Below are positions 6,165-36,546 of a DNA stretch of 36,546 nucleotides, piece by piece. Numbering within the stretch: position 1 is the first letter of the stretch; each line of letters opens with the position of its first letter. The stretch is from a virus (taxonomy: Duplodnaviria > Heunggongvirae > Uroviricota > Caudoviricetes), in IMG/VR virus record IMGVR_UViG_2648501206_000003; one strand, written 5' to 3'. Under the pieces are notes generated by a model. The model had not been told where the DNA came from. It saw only the letters and a list, made by a program, of their open reading frames with translations, and ran no database searches. The translations under genes were made by a program, and so were the position numbers.

Positions 6165-6590
6165 GTGGCAAAAGTTTTTACACAAGAAGAGCGGGAAAAA
6201 ATTAAAGGGCAGGTTGTTGAACTCGTACGCCGGAGTGGGCGCGAGACGTTACGGCAACTGGAAGCCAAGACAGGTGCGACAAGATATCTGATGAGCGTTC
6301 TTGCCAGAGAGCTGGTTGCCAGTGGCGATGTATACAACTCTGGTTACGGGTTATTCCCGTCTGAACAGGCGCGTAAGGACTGGCAAAATGCCCGCAAAAA
6401 ACTCTCAAGGGCAAAGGTGAAGAAACCTGCAGTGGTTGATCCGGACCTTATCTGGTCGTTACCAGACGGCGAAATACGCCGCTACGACAGGCGCCTGAAT
6501 ATAATCTGTCGCGAGTGCCGGAAGAGCGAAGCTATGCAGCGTGTACTGGCATTTTATCAAGGAAATGTTAGGTATTTTAGACGTTACTAG
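6165..6590 (+). CDS. Hypothetical protein (141 aa, possible winged-helix segment, C-terminal CxxC)
   Basis: Track ORF, GTG start preceded by AGGAGG; no family recognised; sits where lambdoid phages usually carry the helicase-loader gene. Confidence 0.45.
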   Translation: MAKVFTQEEREKIKGQVVELVRRSGRETLRQLEAKTGATRYLMSVLARELVASGDVYNSGYGLFPSEQARKDWQNARKKLSRAKVKKPAVVDPDLIWSLPDGEIRRYDRRLNIICRECRKSEAMQRVLAFYQGNVRYFRRY

Positions 6591-6743
6591 ATTAAAGAGC
6601 ATTAGTTCAGATGTGAATTGACATTTTCATGGCGCAGGGTAGAGCCAGCGTGGTTGTCCGCTTTGCGTCAAAACCAGATATTACCAGATTTAGACATATA
6701 TTCCCGATAGCCCTGCTCTGATGCTACACTCTGTGCTATTTTC

Positions 6744-7430
6744 ATGACCCCAATAAAAATATTTATGACTATTGCTGATTTCAAACGGCCTAAATTGGAG
6801 CTCCCAAACGGGGCAAACAAACTACTACTGCACTCTTGCTGTGCTCCATGTTCCGGTGAAGTGATGGAGGCGCTTCAGGCCTCGGGAATCGACTACACCA
6901 TCTTTTTCTACAACCCGAACATTCATCCTCAGAAAGAGTATTTAATTCGTAAGGATGAAAATATTCGCTTTGCTGAACAACACGGCGTGCCGTTTATCGA
7001 TGCTGATTACGACACCGACAACTGGTTTGAACGTGCCAAAGGAATGGAATGGGAGCCTGAGAGGGGGATCCGTTGTACCATGTGTTTTGACATGCGTTTT
7101 GAGCGGACAGCGTTGTACGCTGCTGAAAATGGTTTCAGTGTGATCAGCAGTTCACTGGGCATTTCACGCTGGAAAAATATGCAGCAGGTTAACGAGTGTG
7201 GGCGGCGAGCTGTTGCGCATTATCCGGGTATGGTGTACTGGGATTATAACTGGCGCAAGCAGGGCGGCTCGTCCCGTATGATTGAAATCAGCAAGCGCGA
7301 AAAATTCTATCAGCAGGAATATTGTGGCTGTGTGTATTCTCTGCGCGATACCAATCTACACCGCAAATCTCAGGGACGCCCTCTTATCAAAATTGGCCAA
7401 CTCCACTACGGAAAAGAAGAGAAGGAGTGA
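6744..7430 (+). CDS. DUF208 / QueH-like protein (candidate epoxyqueuosine reductase family); cargo gene
   Basis: Track ORF; motifs [11 protein letters not shown] and FFYNPNIHP recalled as signatures of the DUF208/QueH family; further Cys pairs (CTMC, CGC). Start could be 6744 or 6765. Confidence 0.5.
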
Positions 7431-13407: not shown

Positions 13408-13677
13408 ATGGGACTTGAAATGATTATTGGCTTAGTTCTTGCTGCACTGGCAGCAATTGCTGGTGCTTTTGGTCTGGGCAAATCACGCGGTACCAGAATC
13501 GCTGAAACAAAAGCAGACCAGCAACGTACGGAAGAACGTGCAGCGGCTATTGAAGCGGTCGCCAAACGCAGGGTAGAGACAATAAAAGGGGCTAGGGATG
13601 TACAGCAGACTGTTAACCATCTTTCTGATGACGATGTTGACCACGAGTTGCGCGAAAGCTATACCCGCAAAGCCTGA
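13408..13677 (+). CDS. Spanin inner-membrane subunit (Rz-like)
   Basis: Internal ATG of track ORF 13246..13677; N-terminal TM (MGLEMIIGLVLAALAAIAGAF) followed by a charged, coiled-coil-like region; directly after the endolysin. Confidence 0.65.
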   Translation: MGLEMIIGLVLAALAAIAGAFGLGKSRGTRIAETKADQQRTEERAAAIEAVAKRRVETIKGARDVQQTVNHLSDDDVDHELRESYTRKA

Positions 13678-13840
13678 AGTAACGGACACGACCTGTGACT
13701 GGGTGAACATCATCTACCTAACAGAGCACGATATTACCGTGCTGGATAAACAGACGAAGCGGGACATATTGGCGCATAACAAATCAGTGCAGGCTAACTG
13801 CAGGAAGAAAGCGGGGCATGAACGCAGAGAACTTAAGTAA
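13598..13840 (+). CDS. Spanin outer-membrane lipoprotein subunit (Rz1-like), starting inside Rz in another frame
   Basis: Lipobox LTTSC near the N-terminus; start embedded in the 3' end of the Rz-like gene. Confidence 0.6.
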   Translation: MYSRLLTIFLMTMLTTSCAKAIPAKPEVTDTTCDWVNIIYLTEHDITVLDKQTKRDILAHNKSVQANCRKKAGHERRELK

Positions 13841-14061
13841 CGCGCATTACATCTATAACGAGATGAAAGAGCTACAGCGACAGAAAGGTATACTAGAAAG
13901 TGGCGCTGGGCTTGGTGTGACAATCCAGTCTGCCTATTAAGATAATGCCTTTATTGAGGCTATACGCCCACATGCAGTTGCTGAACTTGACCGCCACATT
14001 GAGGAAAAGAAATCCGTGCTGGTTAATTTGGGAGATTCCTTTTTTATACGAGCATAATAAA

Positions 14062-14078
14062 GCGGGTTGGAAACCCGC
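14062..14078 (-). terminator. Intrinsic terminator for the minus-strand YfbU-like gene
   Basis: Hairpin GCGGGTT-GGA-AACCCGC located 10 nt past the stop; followed on the minus strand by TTATTAT. Confidence 0.45.
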
Positions 14079-14087
14079 CTAAAGCAC

Positions 14088-14627
14088 TTAGAAACTGCGT
14101 GGAGCTGTGGAAAGAATGGATGCCAGTTCTTCCTTTGATAAATCCCAGCTTCGATTTACAGCGTCAATTTTCTTAAACTCATCAAGCATTGCGTTATAGA
14201 GATGTTCTGTACGTGAATGAGTATTGGCAATGGGCTGTTTCTGTTCGGGGAAGCGATCAATTTTCTGATACGCCTCAATGATACTGAAGTAATCGCATTC
14301 ATTATTACCGTCGAAACCTGGGAGCTGAATTTCCCCATCATGTATTTTTAGATGATGGTCACGGACTAATTCTTTTTGCTCGTCATCACTAAGTTTCCTG
14401 AAAGCATTGGAAAGTCCGCGGTACATATTCAATACAGCAGTAACAAAATCACGATCTTCTTTACTTGGTTCATCAACATCCAAATGTGAATATTCGGCCT
14501 TCATAACCCAATCATTACCAGATGACACAGCATATTTTACAAGCTGTGGATCAATATCAGTTTCGATACCTAGGTGGATGGCAATGTCACATAACAAAAT
14601 GGTATTGATTTTATCCTTAATATCCAT
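14088..14627 (-). CDS. YfbU-family (UPF0304-like) protein, 179 aa; antisense A+T-rich cargo gene between lysis and packaging modules
   Basis: Track ORF on the opposite strand to all flanking phage genes; segments VTAVLNMYRGLSNAFRKL, GFDGNNECDYFSIIEAY and THSRTEHLYNAML parallel E. coli YfbU as recalled; own terminator. Confidence 0.5.
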   Translation of the reverse strand: MDIKDKINTILLCDIAIHLGIETDIDPQLVKYAVSSGNDWVMKAEYSHLDVDEPSKEDRDFVTAVLNMYRGLSNAFRKLSDDEQKELVRDHHLKIHDGEIQLPGFDGNNECDYFSIIEAYQKIDRFPEQKQPIANTHSRTEHLYNAMLDEFKKIDAVNRSWDLSKEELASILSTAPRSF

Positions 14628-14765
14628 GAGTTAACCCTCTGAAGTAAAAAGTAATATCTACACCCGTTAGCTCATGAAGTCTATTGATCTGGCTCATATC
14701 AGCTGCAAATCCATTTCATGGAGATACTCAATGCAGGTCACTTTTGATTTATATAAGGGCGAAAC

Positions 14766-15116
14766 ATGCCAGCACTAATCCCACGCGCCTGCCGTAAACG
14801 TGGATGTGCAGGTACAACCACAGACAGTTCTGGTTACTGCGATAAACATCGTGGCGAAGGATGGGCACAGCATCAACGCGGATTAAGTCGCCACCAGCGT
14901 GGCTATGGCTCGAAATGGGATGCCATACGTGCGCGCATACTGAAGCGTGATAATCATCTGTGTCAGAACTGCCTGCGCAACGGGAGAGCCGTTGAAGCCA
15001 GAACTGTGGACCACATTATTCCGAAAGCTCATGGTGGCACGGATGCAGACAGTAATCTGCAGAGTCTGTGCTGGCCCTGCCATAAAGCAAAAACTGCGCG
15101 CGAACGTATCAACTGA
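14766..15116 (+). CDS. HNH endonuclease (terminase-associated)
   Basis: Cys-rich HNH motif (CQNCLRNGRAVEARTVDHIIPKAHGGTDADSNLQSLCWPCH); immediately upstream of the small terminase, as in HK97-like cos phages. Confidence 0.8.
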   Translation: MPALIPRACRKRGCAGTTTDSSGYCDKHRGEGWAQHQRGLSRHQRGYGSKWDAIRARILKRDNHLCQNCLRNGRAVEARTVDHIIPKAHGGTDADSNLQSLCWPCHKAKTARERIN

Positions 15117-15263
15117 TAACAGTTCCCATCTGCAGGGGAGGGGAGGGTCAAATCTCTGCAGCCCTGGCTGCTCAGTACCGCCGCCTGACCCTTCCTCACA
15201 TCGCCGCAGGTTCGAAAACTTTTTTTGGAAATGTGAACAAACGATTGATAGGTAAGACCGATT

Positions 15264-15746
15264 ATGTCAGGACCTCCGAAAACCCCGCCACGCCTGCATT
15301 TGATACGAGGCAACCCCTCAAAGCGCCCCGTTAAAGACTCAAAAAAAACCGCTAAAAAGGATGAAAAAGGTCTCCCTAAAATTCCGCAGCATTTAGGGGC
15401 ACAGGGGAAGTACTGGTTCAGGCGAATGGCGGAAGAGCTGAATGCGGAAGGGATCATTTCTCAGCTTGATGCGCGTGCACTCGAGTTGCTGGTGGAAGCC
15501 TATACCGAATATCGGCATCACTGCGAAACACTCGATGTTGAGGGGTATACCTACCGCACGGAAACGCAGAGCGGTGATGTACTGATTAAGGCGCACCCCG
15601 CGGCGGCAATGAAAGCGGATGCCTGGAAGCGGATCCGGGCAATGCTTGCAGAGTTTGGTATGTCACCGGCAAGCCGGGCTAAAGTAAATATTGCCGGACC
15701 GGATGATGTTGATCCGCTGGCGGAGCTTTTAAAAGCGAGAGACTGA
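15264..15746 (+). CDS. Terminase small subunit (P27 family)
   Basis: 160 aa; position between HNH and the large terminase; sequence pattern typical of P27-family small subunits. Confidence 0.75.
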   Translation: MSGPPKTPPRLHLIRGNPSKRPVKDSKKTAKKDEKGLPKIPQHLGAQGKYWFRRMAEELNAEGIISQLDARALELLVEAYTEYRHHCETLDVEGYTYRTETQSGDVLIKAHPAAAMKADAWKRIRAMLAEFGMSPASRAKVNIAGPDDVDPLAELLKARD

Positions 15747-27202: not shown

Positions 27203-27536
27203 GCCTGAAGTTTTTAACTGGATCCCCCGTGAGGGGATGGAGACGACACGAAAGCCATCAGTTATTACGGTAAAGTTTGGTGACGGATATGAACAGCGAC
27301 GGGCTGGTGGTCTGAATGCGGATCTGAAAACGTTTAAACCGGTATTTCGTGTCACAGATGAATATTCCCGTGCCGCGCTGGACAGTTTTTTATCCCGTCA
27401 TGCCGGGATTCGTGCTTTTTTGTGGCGTCCGCCAAAACACAACAGGACTGTCCGGGTTGTCTGCAGGGAGTGGAGCATTTCGGATAATGCCATGTATACC
27501 GATTTTAACTGTACCTTTGAAGAGGTCACTCACTGA
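27195..27536 (+). CDS. M: Minor tail protein M
   Basis: Segment VKFGDGYEQRRAGGLNADLKT aligns with lambda M (VRFGDGYSQRAPAGLNANLKT); GTG at 27195 with GGAGGA 6 nt upstream preferred over the track start 27150. Confidence 0.7.
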   Translation: MPEPEVFNWIPREGMETTRKPSVITVKFGDGYEQRRAGGLNADLKTFKPVFRVTDEYSRAALDSFLSRHAGIRAFLWRPPKHNRTVRVVCREWSISDNAMYTDFNCTFEEVTH

Positions 27537-28234
27537 TGCAGGATATACAGCAGGAAACACTCAATGAGTGCACTAAAACGGAGCAATCCGCGCTGGTCGT
27601 GCTCTGGGAAATTGATCTGACAGAGGTCGGCGGAGATCGTTATTTCTTCTGTAATGAGCAGAACGAAAAAGGTGAACCAGTCACCTGGCAGGGGCGGCAG
27701 TATCAGGCTTATCCCATTCAGGGAAGCGGATTTGAGATGAACGGCAAAGGAGCCAGTGCAAGGCCAACGCTTAAAGTCTCTAATCTGTACGGCATGGTCA
27801 CCGGGATGGCGGAAGATCTGCAGAGTCTGGTCGGCGGAACGGTGGTCCGGCGTAAGGTTTACGCCCGTTTTCTGGATGCGGTGAACTTCGTCAACGGAAA
27901 CAGTGACGCCGATCCGGAGCAGGAGGTGATCAGCCGCTGGCGCATCGAACAGTGCAGCGAACTGAGCGCGGTCAGTGCCTCTTTTGTGCTGTCCACACCG
28001 ACGGAAACGGATGGCGCTGTTTTTCCGGGGCGCATCATGCTGGCCAACACCTGCACCTGGATCTACCGCGGCGATGAGTGCGGTTATGATGGCCCGGCGG
28101 TCGCGGATGAATATGACCAGCCAACGTCCGATATCACGAAGGATAAGTGCAGCAAATGCCTGAGTGGTTGCAAGTTCCGCAATAACGTCGGCAATTTTGG
28201 CGGCTACCTTTCCATTAACAAACTTTCGCAGTAA
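27536..28234 (+). CDS. L: Minor tail protein L
   Basis: 232 aa; start overlaps the M stop (ATGA); recognised as lambda L-like. Confidence 0.8.
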   Translation: MQDIQQETLNECTKTEQSALVVLWEIDLTEVGGDRYFFCNEQNEKGEPVTWQGRQYQAYPIQGSGFEMNGKGASARPTLKVSNLYGMVTGMAEDLQSLVGGTVVRRKVYARFLDAVNFVNGNSDADPEQEVISRWRIEQCSELSAVSASFVLSTPTETDGAVFPGRIMLANTCTWIYRGDECGYDGPAVADEYDQPTSDITKDKCSKCLSGCKFRNNVGNFGGYLSINKLSQ

Positions 28235-28238
28235 ACCC

Positions 28239-28982
28239 ATGACAGAGACAGAATCAGCGATTCTGGCGCACGCCCGGCGATGTGCGCCAGCGGAGTCGTG
28301 CGGCTTCGTGGTGAGAACGCCGGAGGGGGACAGATATTTTCCCTGCGTGAATATCTCCGGTGAGCCGGAGGCGTATTTCCGGATGTCGCCGGAGGACTGG
28401 CTGCGGGCAGAGATGCAGGGTGAGATTGTGGCGCTGGTCCACAGCCACCCCGGTGGTCTGCCCTGGCTGAGTGAGGCCGACCGGCGGCTGCAGGTGCAGA
28501 GTGATTTGCCGTGGTGGCTGGTCTGCCGTGGGGAGATTCATAAATTCCGCTGTGTGCCGTATCTCACCGGGCGGCGCTTTGAGCACGGGGTGACGGACTG
28601 TTACACGCTGTTCCGGGATGCTTACCATCTGGCGGGGATTGAGATGCCGGATTTTCATCGCGAGGATGACTGGTGGCGTCACGGTCAGAATCTCTATCTG
28701 GATAATCTGGAGGCCACAGGGCTGTATCAGGTGCCGTTGTCAGCGGCGCAGCCGGGCGATGTGCTGCTGTGCTGTTTTGGTTCATCGGTGCCGAATCATG
28801 CCGCCATTTACTGTGGTGACGGCGAGCTGCTGCACCATATTCCTGAACAACTGAGCAAACGAGAGAGGTATACCGACAAATGGCAGCGACGCACACACTC
28901 CCTCTGGCGTCACCAGGCATGGCACGCATCTGCCTTTACGGGGATTTACAACGATTTGTCCGCCGCATCGATCTGCGTGTGA
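28239..28982 (+). CDS. K: Tail assembly protein K (JAB/MPN plus NlpC/P60-like)
   Basis: Internal ATG at 28239 gives MTETESAILAHARRCAPAESCGFVV..., near-identical to the lambda K N-terminus as recalled. Confidence 0.85.
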   Translation: MTETESAILAHARRCAPAESCGFVVRTPEGDRYFPCVNISGEPEAYFRMSPEDWLRAEMQGEIVALVHSHPGGLPWLSEADRRLQVQSDLPWWLVCRGEIHKFRCVPYLTGRRFEHGVTDCYTLFRDAYHLAGIEMPDFHREDDWWRHGQNLYLDNLEATGLYQVPLSAAQPGDVLLCCFGSSVPNHAAIYCGDGELLHHIPEQLSKRERYTDKWQRRTHSLWRHQAWHASAFTGIYNDLSAASICV

Positions 28983-29521
28983 AAACGGGGGCCGAAGCCA
29001 TCCGGGCGCTGGCCATGCAGATCCCGGCGTTTCGTCAGAAGCTGAGCGACGGCTGGTATCAGGTACGCATTGCCGGGCGTGATACAGGTGAAACGGAATT
29101 ATCAGCCCGTCTTAATGAACCGCTGGCAAATGGTGCTGTGATCCATATCGTGCCGCGTCTGGCAGGAGCCAAAAGTGGCGGTGTGTTTCAGGCTGTGCTG
29201 GGGGCGGCTGTTATGGCGGTTGCTATATGGATGCCGGGGGTAGGAATTATGGCGAGTAATCTGCTGTTTTCTCTCGGTGCCAGTATGACGCTTGGCGGTG
29301 TTGCACAGATGCTGGCCCCTAAACCCAAAACCCCCCGCACACAGACAACGGATAACGGCAAACAGAACACCTATTTTTCTTCACTGGATAATATGGTTGC
29401 CCAGGGCAATGTTCTGCCCGTTCTGTACGGTGAAATGCGCGTGGGATCACGTGTGGTATCTCAGGAGATCAGCACAGCAGATGAAGGTGATGGTGGTCAG
29501 GTTGTGGTGATTGGTCGCTGA
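28880..29521 (+). CDS. I: Tail assembly protein I
   Basis: N-terminus MAATHTLPLASPGMARICLYGDLQRF and C-terminus NGKQNTYFSSLDNMVAQGNVLPVLYGEMRVGSRVVSQEIST match lambda I as recalled. Confidence 0.8.
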   Translation: MAATHTLPLASPGMARICLYGDLQRFVRRIDLRVKTGAEAIRALAMQIPAFRQKLSDGWYQVRIAGRDTGETELSARLNEPLANGAVIHIVPRLAGAKSGGVFQAVLGAAVMAVAIWMPGVGIMASNLLFSLGASMTLGGVAQMLAPKPKTPRTQTTDNGKQNTYFSSLDNMVAQGNVLPVLYGEMRVGSRVVSQEISTADEGDGGQVVVIGR

Positions 29522-29581
29522 TGAAAAACGTTTTATGTGAAACCGCCTCCGGGCGGTTTTATCGTTTATGGAGCATGACGA

Positions 29582-32500
29582 ATGGGTAAAGGCAGCAGTA
29601 AGGGGCATACCCCGCGCGAAGCGAAGGACAACCTGAAATCCACGCAGCTGCTGAGTGTGATTGATGCCATCAGCGAAGGGCCGATTGAAGGTCCGGTGGA
29701 TGGATTAAAAAGCGTGCTGCTGAACAGTACGCCAGTGCTGGACAGTGAGGGGAATACCAACATCTCCGGCGTCACGGTGGTGTTCCGGGCCGGTGAGCAG
29801 GAGCAGACACCGCCGGAGGGATTTGAATCCTCCGATTCCGAGACGGTGCTGGGTACGGAAGTGAAATACGACACGCCGATCACCCGGACCATCACGTCTG
29901 CAAACATCGACCGTCTGCGCTTTACCTTCGGTGTGCAGGCACTGGTGGAAACCACCTCAAAGGGTGACCGGAATCCGTCGGAAGTCCGCCTGCTGGTTCA
30001 GATACAACGTAACGGTGGCTGGGTGACAGAAAAAGACATCACCATTAAGGGCAAAACCACGTCGCAGTATCTGGCCTCGGTGGTGGTGGATAACCTGCCG
30101 CCGCGACCGTTCAATATCCGGATGCGCAGGATGACACCGGACAGCACCACAGACCAGCTGCAGAACAAAACGCTCTGGTCGTCATACACCGAAATCATCG
30201 ATGTGAAACAGTGCTACCCGAACACGGCACTGGTCGGCGTGCAGGTGGATTCGGAGCAGTTCGGCAGCCAGCAGGTGAGCCGTAATTATCATCTTCGCGG
30301 GCGCATTCTGCAGGTGCCGTCGAACTATAACCCGCAGACGCGGCAATACAGCGGTATCTGGGACGGGACGTTTAAACCGGCATACAGCAACAACATGGCC
30401 TGGTGTCTGTGGGATATGCTGACCCATCCGCGCTACGGCATGGGGAAGCGTCTCGGTGCGGCGGATGTGGACAAATGGGCGCTGTATGTCATCGGCCAGT
30501 ACTGCGACCAGTCGGTGCCGGACGGCTTTGGCGGCACGGAGCCGCGCATCACCTGTAATGCGTACCTGACCACACAGCGCAAGGCGTGGGATGTGCTCAG
30601 TGATTTCTGCTCGGCGATGCGCTGTATGCCGGTATGGAACGGGCAGACGCTGACGTTCGTGCAGGACCGACCATCAGATAAGGTGTGGACCTATAACCGC
30701 AGTAATGTGGTGATGCCGGATGATGGCGCGCCGTTCCGCTACAGCTTCAGCGCCCTGAAGGACCGCCATAATGCCGTTGAGGTGAACTGGATTGACCCGA
30801 ATAACGGCTGGGAGACGGCGACAGAGCTTGTGGAGGATACGCAGGCCATTGCCCGTTACGGTCGTAACGTCACGAAAATGGATGCCTTTGGCTGTACCAG
30901 CCGGGGGCAGGCACACCGAGCCGGGCTGTGGCTGATTAAAACGGAGCTGCTGGAAACGCAGACCGTGGACTTCAGCGTGGGTGCTGAAGGGCTTCGCCAT
31001 GTGCCGGGCGATGTCATTGAAATCTGCGATGATGACTATGCCGGTATCAGCACCGGTGGTCGCGTGCTGGCGGTGAACAGCCAGACCCGGACGCTGACGC
31101 TCGACCGTGAAATCACGCTGCCATCCTCCGGCACCACGCTGATAAGCCTGGTTGACGGAAATGGCAATCCGGTCAGCGTGGAGGTTCAGTCCGTCACCGA
31201 CGGCGTGAAGGTGAAAGTGAGCCGGGTTCCTGACGGCGTTGCTGAATACAGCGTGTGGGGGCTGAAGTTGCCGACGTTGCGCCAGCGCCTGTTCCGCTGT
31301 GTGAGTATCCGTGAGAACGATGACGGCACGTATGCCATCACTGCCGTGCAGCATGTACCGGAAAAAGAGGCCATCGTGGATAACGGGGCGCACTTTGACG
31401 GCGACCAGAGCGGCACGGTGAATGGTGTCACGCCGCCAGCGGTGCAGCACCTGACCGCCGAAGTCACCGCAGACAGCGGGGAATATCAGGTGCTGGCGCG
31501 CTGGGACACGCCGAAGGTGGTGAAGGGCGTGAGCTTCCTGCTCCGTCTGACCGTAACAGCGGATGACGGCAGTGAGCGGCTGGTCAGCACGGCCCGGACG
31601 ACGGAAACCACATACCGCTTCACGCAACTGGCGCTGGGGAACTACAGGCTGACTGTCCGGGCTGTAAATGCGTGGGGACAGCAGGGCGAGCCGGCATCGG
31701 TATCGTTCCGGATTGCCGCACCGGCAGCGCCGTCTCGGATTGAGCTGACACCGGGCTATTTTCAGATAACCGCCACGCCGCATCTTGCGGTTTATGATCC
31801 GACGGTACAATTTGAGTTCTGGTTCTCGGAAACGCGGATTACCGATATCAGGCAGGTTGAAACCACAGCCCGCTACCTTGGCACGGGGCTGTACTGGATA
31901 GCCGCCAGTATCAATATCAAACCGGGCCATGATTATTACTTTTATATCCGCAGTGTGAACACCGTTGGCAAATCGGCATTCGTGGAGGCCGTCGGTCGGG
32001 CGAGCGATGATGCGGAAGGTTACCTGGATTTTTTCAAAGGCAAGATAACCGAATCCCATCTTGGTAAAGAGCTGCTGGAAAAAGTCGACCTGACGGAGGA
32101 TAACGCCAGCAAACTGGAGCAGTTTTCGAAAGAGTGGAAGGATGCCAACGATAAATGGAATGCCATGTGGGCTGTCAAAATTGAGCAGACCAAAGACGGC
32201 AAACATTATGTCGCGGGTATTGGCCTCAGTATGGAGGACACGGAGGAAGGCAAACTGAGCCAGTTTCTGGTTGCCGCTAACCGTATCGCGTTTATTGACC
32301 CGGCAAACGGGAATGAAACGCCGATGTTTGTGGCGCAGGGCAATCAGATATTCATGAACGACGTGTTCCTGAAACGCCTGACGGCCCCCACCATTACCAG
32401 TGGTGGAAATCCACCGGCATTTTCCCTGACACCGGATGGGCGGCTGACGGCGAAAAATGCCGATATCAGCGGTAACGTGAATGCGAACTCCGGGACGCTC

Positions 32501-32977
32501 AACAACGTCACGATTAACGAGAACTGTCGGGTTCTGGGAAAACTGTCCGCGAACCAGATTGAAGGCGATCTCGTTAAAACAGTGGGCAAAGCTTTCCCCC
32601 GGGACTCCCGTGCACCGGAACGGTGGCCATCAGGGACCATTACCGTCAGGGTTTATGACGATCAGCCGTTTGACCGGCAGATTGTTATTCCGGCGGTGGC
32701 ATTCAGCGGCGCTAAACATGAGAGAGAGCATACTGATATTTACTCCTCATGCCGTCTGATAGTGCGGAAAAACGGTGCTGAAATTTATAACCGTACCGCG
32801 CTGGATAATACGCTGATTTACAGTGGCGTTATTGATATGCCTGCCGGTCACGGTCACATGACGCTGGAGTTTTCGGTGTCAGCATGGCTGGTAAATGACT
32901 GGTATCCCACAGCAAGTATCAGCGATTTGCTGGTTGTGGTGATGAAGAAAGCCACCGCAGGCATCAGTATCAGCTGA
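29582..32977 (+). CDS. J: Tail tip / host specificity protein J
   Basis: 1131 aa; N-terminal and central regions lambda J-like; C-terminal ~130 residues differ from lambda J as I recall it. Confidence 0.9.
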
Positions 32978-32996
32978 ATTTTATAACCCATATACG

Positions 32997-33021
32997 GGCG
33001 CCAGAAATGGCGCCTTTTTTA
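32997..33021 (+). terminator. Intrinsic terminator after J
   Basis: Stem GGCGCC/GGCGCC with AGAAAT loop followed by TTTTTT. Confidence 0.55.
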
Positions 33022-33044
33022 TTGCAGAAAAGCGAGAGGTAATT

Positions 33045-33644
33045 ATGCGTAAAGTTTGTGCAGCCATTTTGTCCGCAGCCATCTGTCTGTCCGTATCCGG
33101 TGCGCCTGCATGGGCGTCTGAACATCAGTCCACACTGAGCGCAGGGTATCTTCATGCCCGTACGAACGCTCCCGGCAGCGATAATCTGAACGGGATTAAC
33201 GTGAAATACCGTTATGAGTTTACGGACACGCTGGGGCTGATTACGTCCTTCAGTTATGCCAATGCTGAGGATGAGCAAAAAACGCACTACAGCGATACCC
33301 GCTGGCATGAAGATTCCGAGCGTAATCGCTGGTTCAGCGTGATGGCGGGGCCGTCTGTACGCGTGAATGAATGGTTCAGCGCGTATGCGATGGCGGGTGT
33401 GGCTTACAGCCGTGTGTCGACTTTCTCCGGGGATTATCTCCGCGTAACTGACAACAAGGGGAAAAAGCACGATGTGCTGACCGGAAGTGATGACGGTCGC
33501 CACAGCAACACGTCTCTGGCGTGGGGAGCTGGCGTGCAGTTTAACCCGACCGAATCCGTGGCCATTGATGTCGCTTATGAAGGCTCCGGCAGTGGTGACT
33601 GGCGCACTGACGGGTTCATCGTGGGTGTTGGTTATAAATTCTGA
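33045..33644 (+). CDS. lom: Outer membrane protein Lom (Ail/Lom family)
   Basis: 199 aa with signal peptide; C-terminus VAYEGSGSGDWRTDGFIVGVGYKF matches lambda Lom as recalled. Confidence 0.85.
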   Translation: MRKVCAAILSAAICLSVSGAPAWASEHQSTLSAGYLHARTNAPGSDNLNGINVKYRYEFTDTLGLITSFSYANAEDEQKTHYSDTRWHEDSERNRWFSVMAGPSVRVNEWFSAYAMAGVAYSRVSTFSGDYLRVTDNKGKKHDVLTGSDDGRHSNTSLAWGAGVQFNPTESVAIDVAYEGSGSGDWRTDGFIVGVGYKF

Positions 33645-33670
33645 TTAGCCAGGTAACACAGTGTTATGAC

Positions 33671-33698
33671 AGCCCGCCGGTTCAGGCGGGCTTTTTTG
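33671..33698 (+). terminator. Intrinsic terminator after lom
   Basis: Stem AGCCCGCC/GGCGGGCT with GGTTCA loop followed by TTTTT. Confidence 0.6.
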
Positions 33699-33708
33699 TG
33701 GGGTGAAT

Positions 33709-36546
33709 ATGGCAGTAAAAATTTCAGGTGTACTGAAAGACGGCACAGGAAAACCGGTACAGAACTGCACAATCCAGCTGAAAGCAAAACGTAACAGTAC
33801 CACGGTGGTGGTGAACACGCTGGCATCTGAAAATCCGGATGAAGCCGGGCGTTACAGTATGGACGTTGAGTACGGTCAGTACAGCGTTATTCTGTTGGTG
33901 GAAGGATTCCCGCCGTCACATGCCGGGACCATCACAGTGTATGAAGATTCCCGACCCGGTACGCTGAATGATTTTCTCGGTGCCATGACGGAGGATGATG
34001 CCCGTCCGGAGGCACTGCGCCGTTTTGAGCTGATGGTGGAAGAGGTGGCGCGTAACGCGTCCGTGGTGGCACAGAACACGGCAGCCGCGAAGAAGTCAGC
34101 CAGTGATGCCAGCACATCAGCCCGTGAGGCGGCAACCCATGCGACTGATGCTGCAGGCTCAGCACGCGCAGCCAGCACGTCAGCCGGACAGGCCGCGTCG
34201 TCGGCTCAGTCAGCGACTTCCAGCGCAGGAACGGCATCAGCAAAAGCCTCTGAGGCATCAAAAAGTGCTGCCGCTGCAGAGTCCTCAAAAAGCGCGGCGG
34301 CCACCAGTGCCGGTGCGGCGAAAACGTCAGAAACGAATGCGGCAGCGTCACAACAATCAGCAGCCACTTCTGCATCCACCGCGACCACGAAAGCGTCAGA
34401 AGCAGCCACTTCAGCACGGGATGCGGCGGCCTCAAAAGAGGCGGCAAAATCATCAGAAACGAACGCATCATCAAGCGCCAGTAGTGCCGCTTCCTCGGCA
34501 ACGGCGGCAGGAAATTCTGCGAAGGCGGCAAAGACGTCTGAGACAAACGCTAAGTTCTCTGAAACGGCAGCGGAACAGAGTGCCTCAGCTGCGGCAGGCT
34601 CAAAAACAGCGGCTGCATCATCTGCCAGTGCCGCGTCAACAAGTGCCGGGCAGGCCTCAGCCAGTGCCACCGCCGCCGGAAAATCGGCAGAAAGCGCCGC
34701 ATCGTCTGCTTCAACAGCCACAACGAAGGCTGGCGAAGCCACTGAACAGGCCAGTGCAGCAGCGAGGTCTGCTTCCGCAGCGAAGACATCCGAAACGAAC
34801 GCGAAAGCGTCGGAAACCCGTGCAGAATCCTCAAAAACGGCAGCGGCATCGTCCGCCAGTTCGGCGGCGTCATCGGCATCATCGGCGTCTGCTTCAAAAG
34901 ATGAGGCGACCAGACAGGCGTCAGCAGCGAAGGGCAGCGCCACGACAGCATCCACGAAGGCGACAGAGGCAGCTGGCAGTGCGACGGCGGCAGCACAGAG
35001 CAAAAGTACGGCGGAATCCGCGGCAACGCGCGCCGAGACAGCGGCAAAACGGGCAGAGGATATTGCATCCGCCGTGGCGCTTGAGGATGCGAGCACGACG
35101 AAAAAGGGGGTAGTACAGCTCAGCAGTGCGACCAACAGTACGTCTGAAACGCTGGCGGCAACGCCAAAGGCAGTAAAATCAGCCTATGACAATGCAGAGA
35201 AACGTCTGCAGAAAGACCAGAACGGCGCTGATATACCCGATAAGGGACGCTTCCTGAACAACATTAACGCGGTCAGTAAAACAGACTTTGCTGATAAGCG
35301 TGGTATGCGTTATGTGCGGGTTAACGCTCCTGCAGGTGCAACATCTGGAAAATATTACCCTGTTGTTGTTATGCGTTCTGCTGGCTCAGTAAGCGAACTG
35401 GCATCAAGGGTCATTATCACCACGGCAACGCGAACCGCAGGCGATCCGATGAATAACTGCGAGTTTAACGGATTTGTTATGCCTGGTGGCTGGACTGACA
35501 GGGGGCGTTATGCTTATGGAATGTTCTGGCAATATCAAAACAATGAACGAGCCATCCACTCAATAATGATGAGTAATAAGGGCGATGATTTGCGCTCTGT
35601 GTTCTATGTTGATGGCGCTGCTTTCCCTGTTTTTGCGTTTATCGAAGATGGCCTGTCAATATCCGCACCTGGTGCTGATCTCGTTGTTAATGATACGACC
35701 TATAAGTTTGGGGCAACAAATCCGGCGACTGAATGTATCGCGGCGGACGTTATCCTTGATTTTAAGAGTGGGCGTGGTTTTTATGAGTCTCATTCGTTAA
35801 TCGTTAACGATAACTTGTCGTGCAAAAAACTTTTTGCCACAGACGAAATTGTAGCGCGTGGTGGTAATCAGATTCGAATGATAGGTGGGGAGTATGGTGC
35901 ATTATGGCGTAATGATGGCGCTAAAACTTACCTGCTGCTTACCAATCAAGGTGATGTTTATGGTGGCTGGAATACATTAAGACCGTTTGCTATTGATAAC
36001 GCAACCGGCGAACTGGTTATTGGAACCAAACTGTCCGCAAGTCTGAACGGTAATGCATTAACAGCAACAAAGCTGCAAACGCCAAGACTGGTTTCTGGTG
36101 TTGAGTTTGATGGTTCCAAAGATATTACTTTAACCGCCGCGCATGTGGCTGCTTTTGCCAGAAGGGCAACGGATACATATGCCGATGCGGATGGTGGCGT
36201 TCCCTGGAATGCCGAATCAGGCGCTTATAATGTCACCCGCTCTGGCGACAGCTATATTCTGGTTAACTTCTATACCGGAGTCGGAAGTTGCCGGACCCTG
36301 CAGATGAAGGCGCATTACAGAAATGGTGGTCTGTTCTACCGTTCTTCAAGAGATGGCTATGGTTTTGAGGAAGACTGGGCAGAAGTTTATACCTCGAAAA
36401 ATCTTCCACCAGAAAGCTACCCAGTCGGCGCACCAATCCCGTGGCCATCAGATACCGTTCCGTCTGGTTATGCCCTGATGCAGGGGCAGACTTTTGACAA
36501 ATCTGCCTACCCGAAACTTGCAGCCGCTTATCCGTCAGGCGTGATC
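33709..36546 (+). CDS. stf: Side tail fibre protein Stf, N-terminal ~945 codons; gene continues past the right window edge
   Basis: ATG at 33709; N-terminus [37 protein letters not shown] matches lambda Stf as recalled; long Ala/Ser/Thr-rich repeat region; frame open to the window end. Absent from the ORF track because truncated. Confidence 0.85.

Follow-up and report, generated by a model that had tools for sequence, protein, structure and literature searches.

The tip of the tail-tip protein J is exchanged as a module among lambdoid phages, and the J gene described here raises the question of which outer-membrane receptor is recognized by a protein whose body resembles that of lambda J and whose C-terminus does not. 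An earlier note, made from the letters of the DNA alone, had proposed that the receptor differs from LamB, the receptor bound by lambda. The window, i.e. the whole 36,546-nt stretch that was analysed, is a segment of an E. coli prophage of a lambdoid siphovirus with genes for replication, lysis, terminase, portal, capsid, tape measure and tail tip, and it matches E. coli chromosomes best (99.6% identity over positions 29000–36546). The profile search identified six Pfam families in the J product, all above their gathering cut-offs and in the same order as in lambda J (FNIII-A_GpJ, Phage-tail_3, Ig_J, Ig_J_second, Phage_Tail_Tip, Ig_GpJ_C), which in a single protein of about 1130 aa characterizes the gpJ-type tail-tip proteins. 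The position of the gene is also that of a gpJ-type protein: the order L-K-I-J-lom-stf is colinear in blastn with lambda 13409–18450 and 19458–20557, and near-identical E. coli and phage records are annotated in agreement with this location of J in the tail module. The coordinates of J, its parts and its neighbours are collected in Table 1.

Table 1. Gene J, its modules and candidate receptor loops, and the adjacent features of the window (nt positions in the window; aa numbers refer to the J protein)
Feature	Position	Strand	Basis or remark
Gene J, tail-tip attachment/host-specificity protein (central tail fibre)	29582..32977	+	ORF and translation; 1131 aa, intact
Lambda-like part of J, aa 1–960 (hub, two Ig/FNIII domains, helical shaft, most of the beta-prism fibre)	29582..32461	+	identity to lambda J
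Mosaic junction zone, from lambda-like DNA to another lineage	32375..32527	+	mismatch density, change point and end of blastn homology
Divergent C-terminal module, aa 983–1131 (last fibre turn and Ig-like receptor-binding domain, aa ~1001–1131)	32528..32974	+	1A2/VT1-Sakai type, judged from sequence
Loop aa 1008–1015 (DSRAPERW)	32603..32626	+	indel between tip types; would map to phi330 loop T918–Y921
Hairpin aa 1047–1053 (EREHTDI), contains R1048 (K in 1A2)	32720..32740	+	would map to phi330 E953–S962
Hairpin aa 1104–1109 (VNDWYP), contains D1106 (N in 1A2)	32891..32908	+	would map to phi330 A1015–P1020
Terminator-like hairpin and T-run between J and lom	32996..33023 (hairpin 32996–33015)	+	pattern scan; consensus match only
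lom (Ail/Lom outer-membrane protein), next gene after J as in lambda	33045..33644	+	Pfam PF06316, E 7e-127
stf, side tail fibre gene, second adsorption device	33709..36546, open at the window end	+	946 codons without a stop

The BLASTP comparison with lambda J (J02459, 15505–18903) revealed 90% identity overall, which is distributed very unevenly along the sequence: 939 of the 960 residues of aa 1–960 are identical (97.8%), followed by 19/22 in aa 961–982 and by 63/150 (42%) in aa 983–1131. The N-terminal and central parts are thus lambda-like, as the earlier note had judged, and the divergence that it described for the last ~130 residues is real, with the correction that the block starts near aa 983 (nt ~32528) and comprises ~150 residues. 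The short motifs named there as common to both proteins, WPSGT, DRQIV (within FDRQIV) and DMPAG, are present in the window J and aligned with their lambda counterparts. Close identity to lambda J aa 983–1132 including the receptor loops, by which a lambda-type LamB-binding tip and hence an unchanged C-terminal domain would be recognized, was not observed. At the DNA level, the identity of J to lambda is ~95–97% up to position ~32460 (~91–100% in windows of 90 nt, two of them at 86%), 71% in 32462–32551 and ~50% from 32552 to the stop codon. The maximum-likelihood two-rate change point was placed at nt 32502 (codon 974), with 4.6% mismatches to the left vs. 46% to the right, and the last blastn homology to lambda in J ends at 32527; the synonymous DNA divergence is already climbing from about nt 32400. 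Given the background divergence of 2.2%, 87 differences in 150 residues correspond to a binomial tail of ~1e-102, hence the divergence of the C-terminus reflects a module boundary and not chance.

The Pfam profile PF12421 (Ig_GpJ_C) matches aa 1001–1131 with high significance (E 3.2e-37; 128.1 bits vs. the cut-off of 26.2). The best sequence relatives of the tip among solved structures are those of A8 gpJ 713, in the closed state (9wca in the PDB) and in the open state with the OmpC of EDL933 (9wcb), with an E-value of 6e-63, while lambda gpJ (8iyk and 8xcj) was found with E-values of about 1e-41 (2.5e-41 for 8iyk). The AlphaFold2 model of the tip, calculated with 20 homologues, has a mean pLDDT of 80, with values of 85–97 within the domain. 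The Foldseek search with this model retrieved both A8 structures together with the closed lambda gpJ (8xck) and lambda gpJ with LamB (8xcj), with E-values from 1e-18 to 1e-16 and TM-scores of 0.70–0.73, and nothing near besides these A8 and lambda gpJ entries. Structure prediction, which the earlier note had recommended, thus agrees with its view of the divergent region as the counterpart of the lambda receptor-binding domain, the one solved with LamB bound (8xcj; PMC11101478): the block is still a gpJ receptor-binding domain, with the predicted Ig-like β-sandwich fold of the solved tips. The loops of the tip differ from those of lambda in both sequence and length, with indels in the alignment. 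Confinement of the divergence to the tip loops was considered and rejected: identity to lambda in the model amounts to 32/82 in strands vs. 25/53 in loops, with no contrast between the two, and the divergence from lambda is therefore domain-wide.

The comparison of the tip domain (aa 1001–1131) with those of other J proteins revealed 97.7% identity to VT1-Sakai (Sp15; 128/131) and 91% to PhiR49_2, followed at a distance by phage 21 (60%), A8/Lys8385Vzw (56%), 2H10 (53%), Fels-1 (46%), lambda (42%), and mEp460 and 2851 (38% each). The DNA gives a matching picture: over the last 425 nt of J, many E. coli phages, including long-tailed Stx1/Stx2 phages, are 97.6–99.8% identical to the window, e.g. 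VT1-Sakai, Stx2a_1447, JLK-2012 and PhiR55_1, and the type occurs in many long-tailed prophages both with and without Stx. The literature search on PhiR55_1 and PhiR49_2, the closest isolates, found no paper, and a 2026 preprint on receptor prediction, concerned with GpJ of the Drexlerviridae type, contains nothing on the tip type of the window. The OmpC-binding tips of the A8 group (A8, phi330, Lys8385Vzw and 2H10; structures 9wca and 9wcb) share the fold and 88–90% of the stalk residues with the window, but close identity to residues 257–428 of 9wca, expected of a tip of the A8/phi330 type, is missing and the loop lengths are different: the hairpin at 1047–1053 is 5 residues longer and the loop at 1008–1015 is 4 residues shorter in A8 than in the window.

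Phage 21 illustrates why receptor calls based on moderate similarity are unsafe. Its J is likewise lambda-like with a non-lambda tip (stalk 92% identical to the window), its reported native receptor is LamB, and the use of OmpC was gained by a single J mutation (PMC11336670); a few mutations can thus alter the receptor choice within the family. Phage 21 was therefore rejected as a native OmpC user that could support assignment of OmpC to the window. Its tip is closer to that of the window than the tip of lambda is (60% vs. 42%), and the fold and the domain family of the window tip are the same as those of the LamB binder of lambda; both observations would agree with a tip that still uses LamB and has changed by drift or by adaptation to LamB variants, with no switch of the receptor. 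What decides between LamB and another receptor is a much closer relative, for which receptor data have been published.

Brödel et al. (Nature 2024, PMC11338833) placed the J C-termini of natural E. coli prophages on lambda J by fusion at residue 964, and two chimeras, A8 and 1A2, were shown in a lamB deletion to use OmpC instead of LamB. Among the receptor-characterized lambdoid J tips to which the window J was aligned, as the earlier note had advised, 1A2 is the closest. Its sequence was taken from machine-read text of the supplement with dropped bases (PMC11338833) and aligned in a frameshift-tolerant manner; over the 171 residues of the graft, which starts from lambda aa 965, 159 are identical to the window, 6 are unreadable and 6 are different, i.e. 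159/165 of the readable residues agree, which is the near-identity expected within the 1A2/VT1-Sakai type. Three of the differences, R1048K, D1106N and S1129T (window to 1A2), are exactly those of the VT1-Sakai allele. The other three, V1022F, R1023C and F1041L, fall in garbled text, and V, R and F are found at these positions in 25–26 of 29 sequences of the type, from which we infer that they are reading errors and not real differences. Peptide strings and natural-codon DNA strings of the window are absent from the supplement of PMC11338833, and blastn against the 1A2 graft gave no match, because the graft has been recoded. Judged by these comparisons, the tip of the window can be assigned to the 1A2 type, and A8 to the type of Lys8385Vzw, 2H10 and phi330. 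With its lambda-type body and the same type of tip, the window J amounts to a naturally occurring version of the engineered 1A2 chimera, from which it differs by the three substitutions of the VT1-Sakai allele, by a body that is 97.8% and not 100% lambda, and by natural codons in place of recoded ones.

The behaviour of 1A2 in the source data of PMC11338833 depends strongly on the porin offered. On wild-type, LamB-positive MG1655 it yields ~5% GFP-positive cells, compared with 98% for lambda, and on MG1655 with the ompC of the O157 strain EDL933 the delivery is 93–99% (Fig. 1b source data). In the lamB ompC double deletion, delivery at the top multiplicity of infection exceeds 90% with 18 of the 23 OmpC variants, including G17 (EDL933), and reaches 76–82% with G25 and G28 and only ~1–2% with G1, G2 and G40 (PMC11338833). 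The G1 values for 1A2 equal those of the strain with OmpC-MG1655 (K-12) in Extended Data Fig. 2b (PMC11338833). The sheet for Extended Data Fig. 2c was not used: its values for 1A2 and A8 are identical to those of panel b and are at odds with both the text of PMC11338833 and the G17 data in Extended Data Fig. 1, which suggests a mistake made in copying. Delivery of 1–2% vs. >90% according to the OmpC allele means that the OmpC allele decides the delivery by 1A2 and that LamB is not used. Continued use of LamB by the window tip is therefore hard to reconcile with these data, since 1A2 barely transduces LamB-positive MG1655 and works in a lamB deletion provided that the ompC allele is suitable (PMC11338833), and we regard the chance of it as very small.

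Another outer-membrane protein, such as OmpF or FhuA, might be bound in place of OmpC, or OmpC might be needed indirectly. Evolved lambda and phage 21 can indeed use OmpF (PMC11101478, PMC11336670), and the loop substitutions R1048 and D1106 separate the window from the characterized 1A2. However, the lamB ompC deletion retains the other outer-membrane proteins and the delivery by 1A2 nonetheless follows the OmpC allele, while a direct complex with OmpC has been solved for the sister tip A8 (9wcb), which makes both variants of this explanation highly improbable. OmpC is also the receptor in another member of the A8 type, phi330, whose plaquing is lost on the Keio ompC mutant and restored by complementation (PMC12502783). 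The two OmpC-using types are not equivalent, as A8 accepts the OmpC of K-12 and 1A2 does not. With 97–98% identity of the domain to that of 1A2, the allele of the window would very probably behave like 1A2, and the proposal of a receptor other than LamB gains support from the published data, with OmpC as the very likely receptor. We conclude that J combines a body of the lambda lineage with a tip of the VT1-Sakai type, which most likely binds natural, non-K-12 alleles of OmpC and not LamB; the assignment of OmpC depends on the 97–98% identity to 1A2.

Candidate receptor-contacting loops were located by analogy. Ge & Wang (2024, PMC11101478) named the receptor loops L1–L4; their main text gives them without residue numbers, and the loop mapping therefore relied on the numbering of phi330 (PMC12502783), whose residues were transferred onto the tip alignment, so that the correspondences in Table 1 are to be read as inferred. 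Of the phi330 hairpins, E953–S962 has been predicted with AlphaFold3 to point into the OmpC barrel and A1015–P1020 to touch the rim of OmpC (PMC12502783). Variation within the tip type peaks at aa 1047–1053, 1090–1092 and 1103–1107 (nt 32720–32740, 32849–32857 and 32888–32902); the hairpin 1047–1053 is the most variable spot, where a single alignment column can hold as many as 9 different residues in the set of 28 cluster representatives. The variable loops include both hairpins mapped onto the predicted OmpC contacts. R1048 and D1106, which differ from 1A2, lie in these putatively receptor-facing hairpins, and both positions are polymorphic within the type, with G in 12, D in 9 and N in 6 members at position 1106. 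Perhaps the R1048/D1106 allele recognizes a measurably different set of OmpC proteins than the K1048/N1106 allele, and the loop variation could reflect an arms race between prophages and OmpC, a suggestion that we put forward tentatively and consider rather doubtful. If it were true, OmpC, and not LamB, would be the main entry of natural lambda-like siphoviruses of E. coli.

A sequence of events at the receptor can be proposed by homology. Three J chains would build the tip, and their three Ig-like domains would turn the bottom loops to the extracellular mouth of the porin trimer. In lambda, insertion of the loops spreads the domains, the fibre twists and folds back, the hub opens, and gpI and gpH are released (PMC11101478); the closed and open structures of A8 gpJ (9wca and 9wcb) point to the same kind of switch between two states on OmpC. 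Given a window J with a body 97.8% identical to that of lambda and a tip of the 1A2 type, the same series of events may be expected, with OmpC as the trigger: the movement at OmpC would travel up the fibre and open the tail tip, so that the DNA can be ejected. The first, reversible attachment would be provided by the intact side tail fibre encoded downstream.

In terms of origin, J is a natural mosaic, with the first ~960 residues from the lambda lineage and the last ~150 from another lineage. The protein stretch encoded by the junction zone is nearly invariant across all J tip types compared in the alignment, and the joint of the engineered 1A2 and A8 chimeras at lambda aa 964 (PMC11338833) lies inside the same conserved stretch. 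A second comparison, with the J of PhiR55_1, revealed that the first ~800 codons (the hub) and the tip are common to both genes, with identity climbing from 67% through 92% to 99% across positions 32198–32647, while the shaft/fibre segment is different (43–67% nt identity over window positions 31982–32347, and 84 nt longer in PhiR55_1, at ~6350–6800). Since the hub and tip match and the shaft does not, J consists of at least 3 exchangeable modules. In the DNA of the window only the L-K-I-J region 27516–32527 is lambda-like (92% identity), and the homology to lambda returns only with the 3' part of lom and the N-terminal part of stf. The tape measure, the head genes (with HK97-like portal and capsid PHROGs) and the terminase belong to another lineage, and the 5' half of lom does not resemble lambda either.

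Among 5426 complete E. coli genomes, 3364 (62%) contain the tip DNA (32550–32974, coverage of at least 80%), with a median of 2 copies and a maximum of 10 per genome. The tip DNA of lambda itself was found in 98 of the 5426 (2%), largely K-12, B and DE3 laboratory strains. The database search with the tip protein retrieved only entries from E. coli, E. albertii and Shigella, many of which stand for thousands of member sequences. The tip type of the window is thus common among E. coli prophages and the LamB tip of lambda is the exception. The multiplicity of the module, up to 10 copies in a genome, together with the many fragments among the database entries and the annotation of the VT1-Sakai J as truncated by mutation, could indicate that the J of the window is a functionless remnant in a defective prophage, whatever its ancestry. 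Against this, the ORF is full length and encodes all six Pfam domains, the terminase, portal, capsid, tape-measure, L, K, I, lom and stf genes around it look intact, and near-identical tips occur in isolated plaque-forming phages, e.g. PhiR55_1; a remnant is therefore very unlikely.

The tip itself is a known and widespread variant, and experiments have established the receptor for a domain essentially identical to it. Thousands of genomes carry it in annotated form, and under the name gpJ 1A2 the type has served to redirect lambda particles to OmpC, hence the value of the present case as a discovery is small, and the prevalence figures show how atypical the tip of lambda is among E. coli prophages. 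For annotation, the receptor of such prophages can be called as OmpC (non-K-12 alleles) and not LamB, which accounts for the difficulty of propagating such phages on K-12.

Several minor observations concern the genes downstream of J. The 3' part of lom is 87% identical to lambda lom, and the 5' part could not be aligned by blastn. A second GC-rich terminator-like hairpin with a T-run follows directly after lom (33671–33700), so that lom is flanked by two such elements that set it apart as a separate unit. The N-terminal part of stf shows 87% DNA identity to lambda orf-401 (blastn); stf also encodes ~350 aa of low complexity with a high content of Ala, Ser and Thr, and the conserved fibre-tip motif region lies at the end of its C-terminal part. 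In E. coli MINF_2E the same gene measures 3399 nt, with a tail fibre assembly gene downstream and yodB/zinT after that. Long antisense ORFs run over J and lom (30674–32206, 32344–32640 and 32970–33503, all on the minus strand); they probably reflect nothing but chance in a GC-rich coding region.
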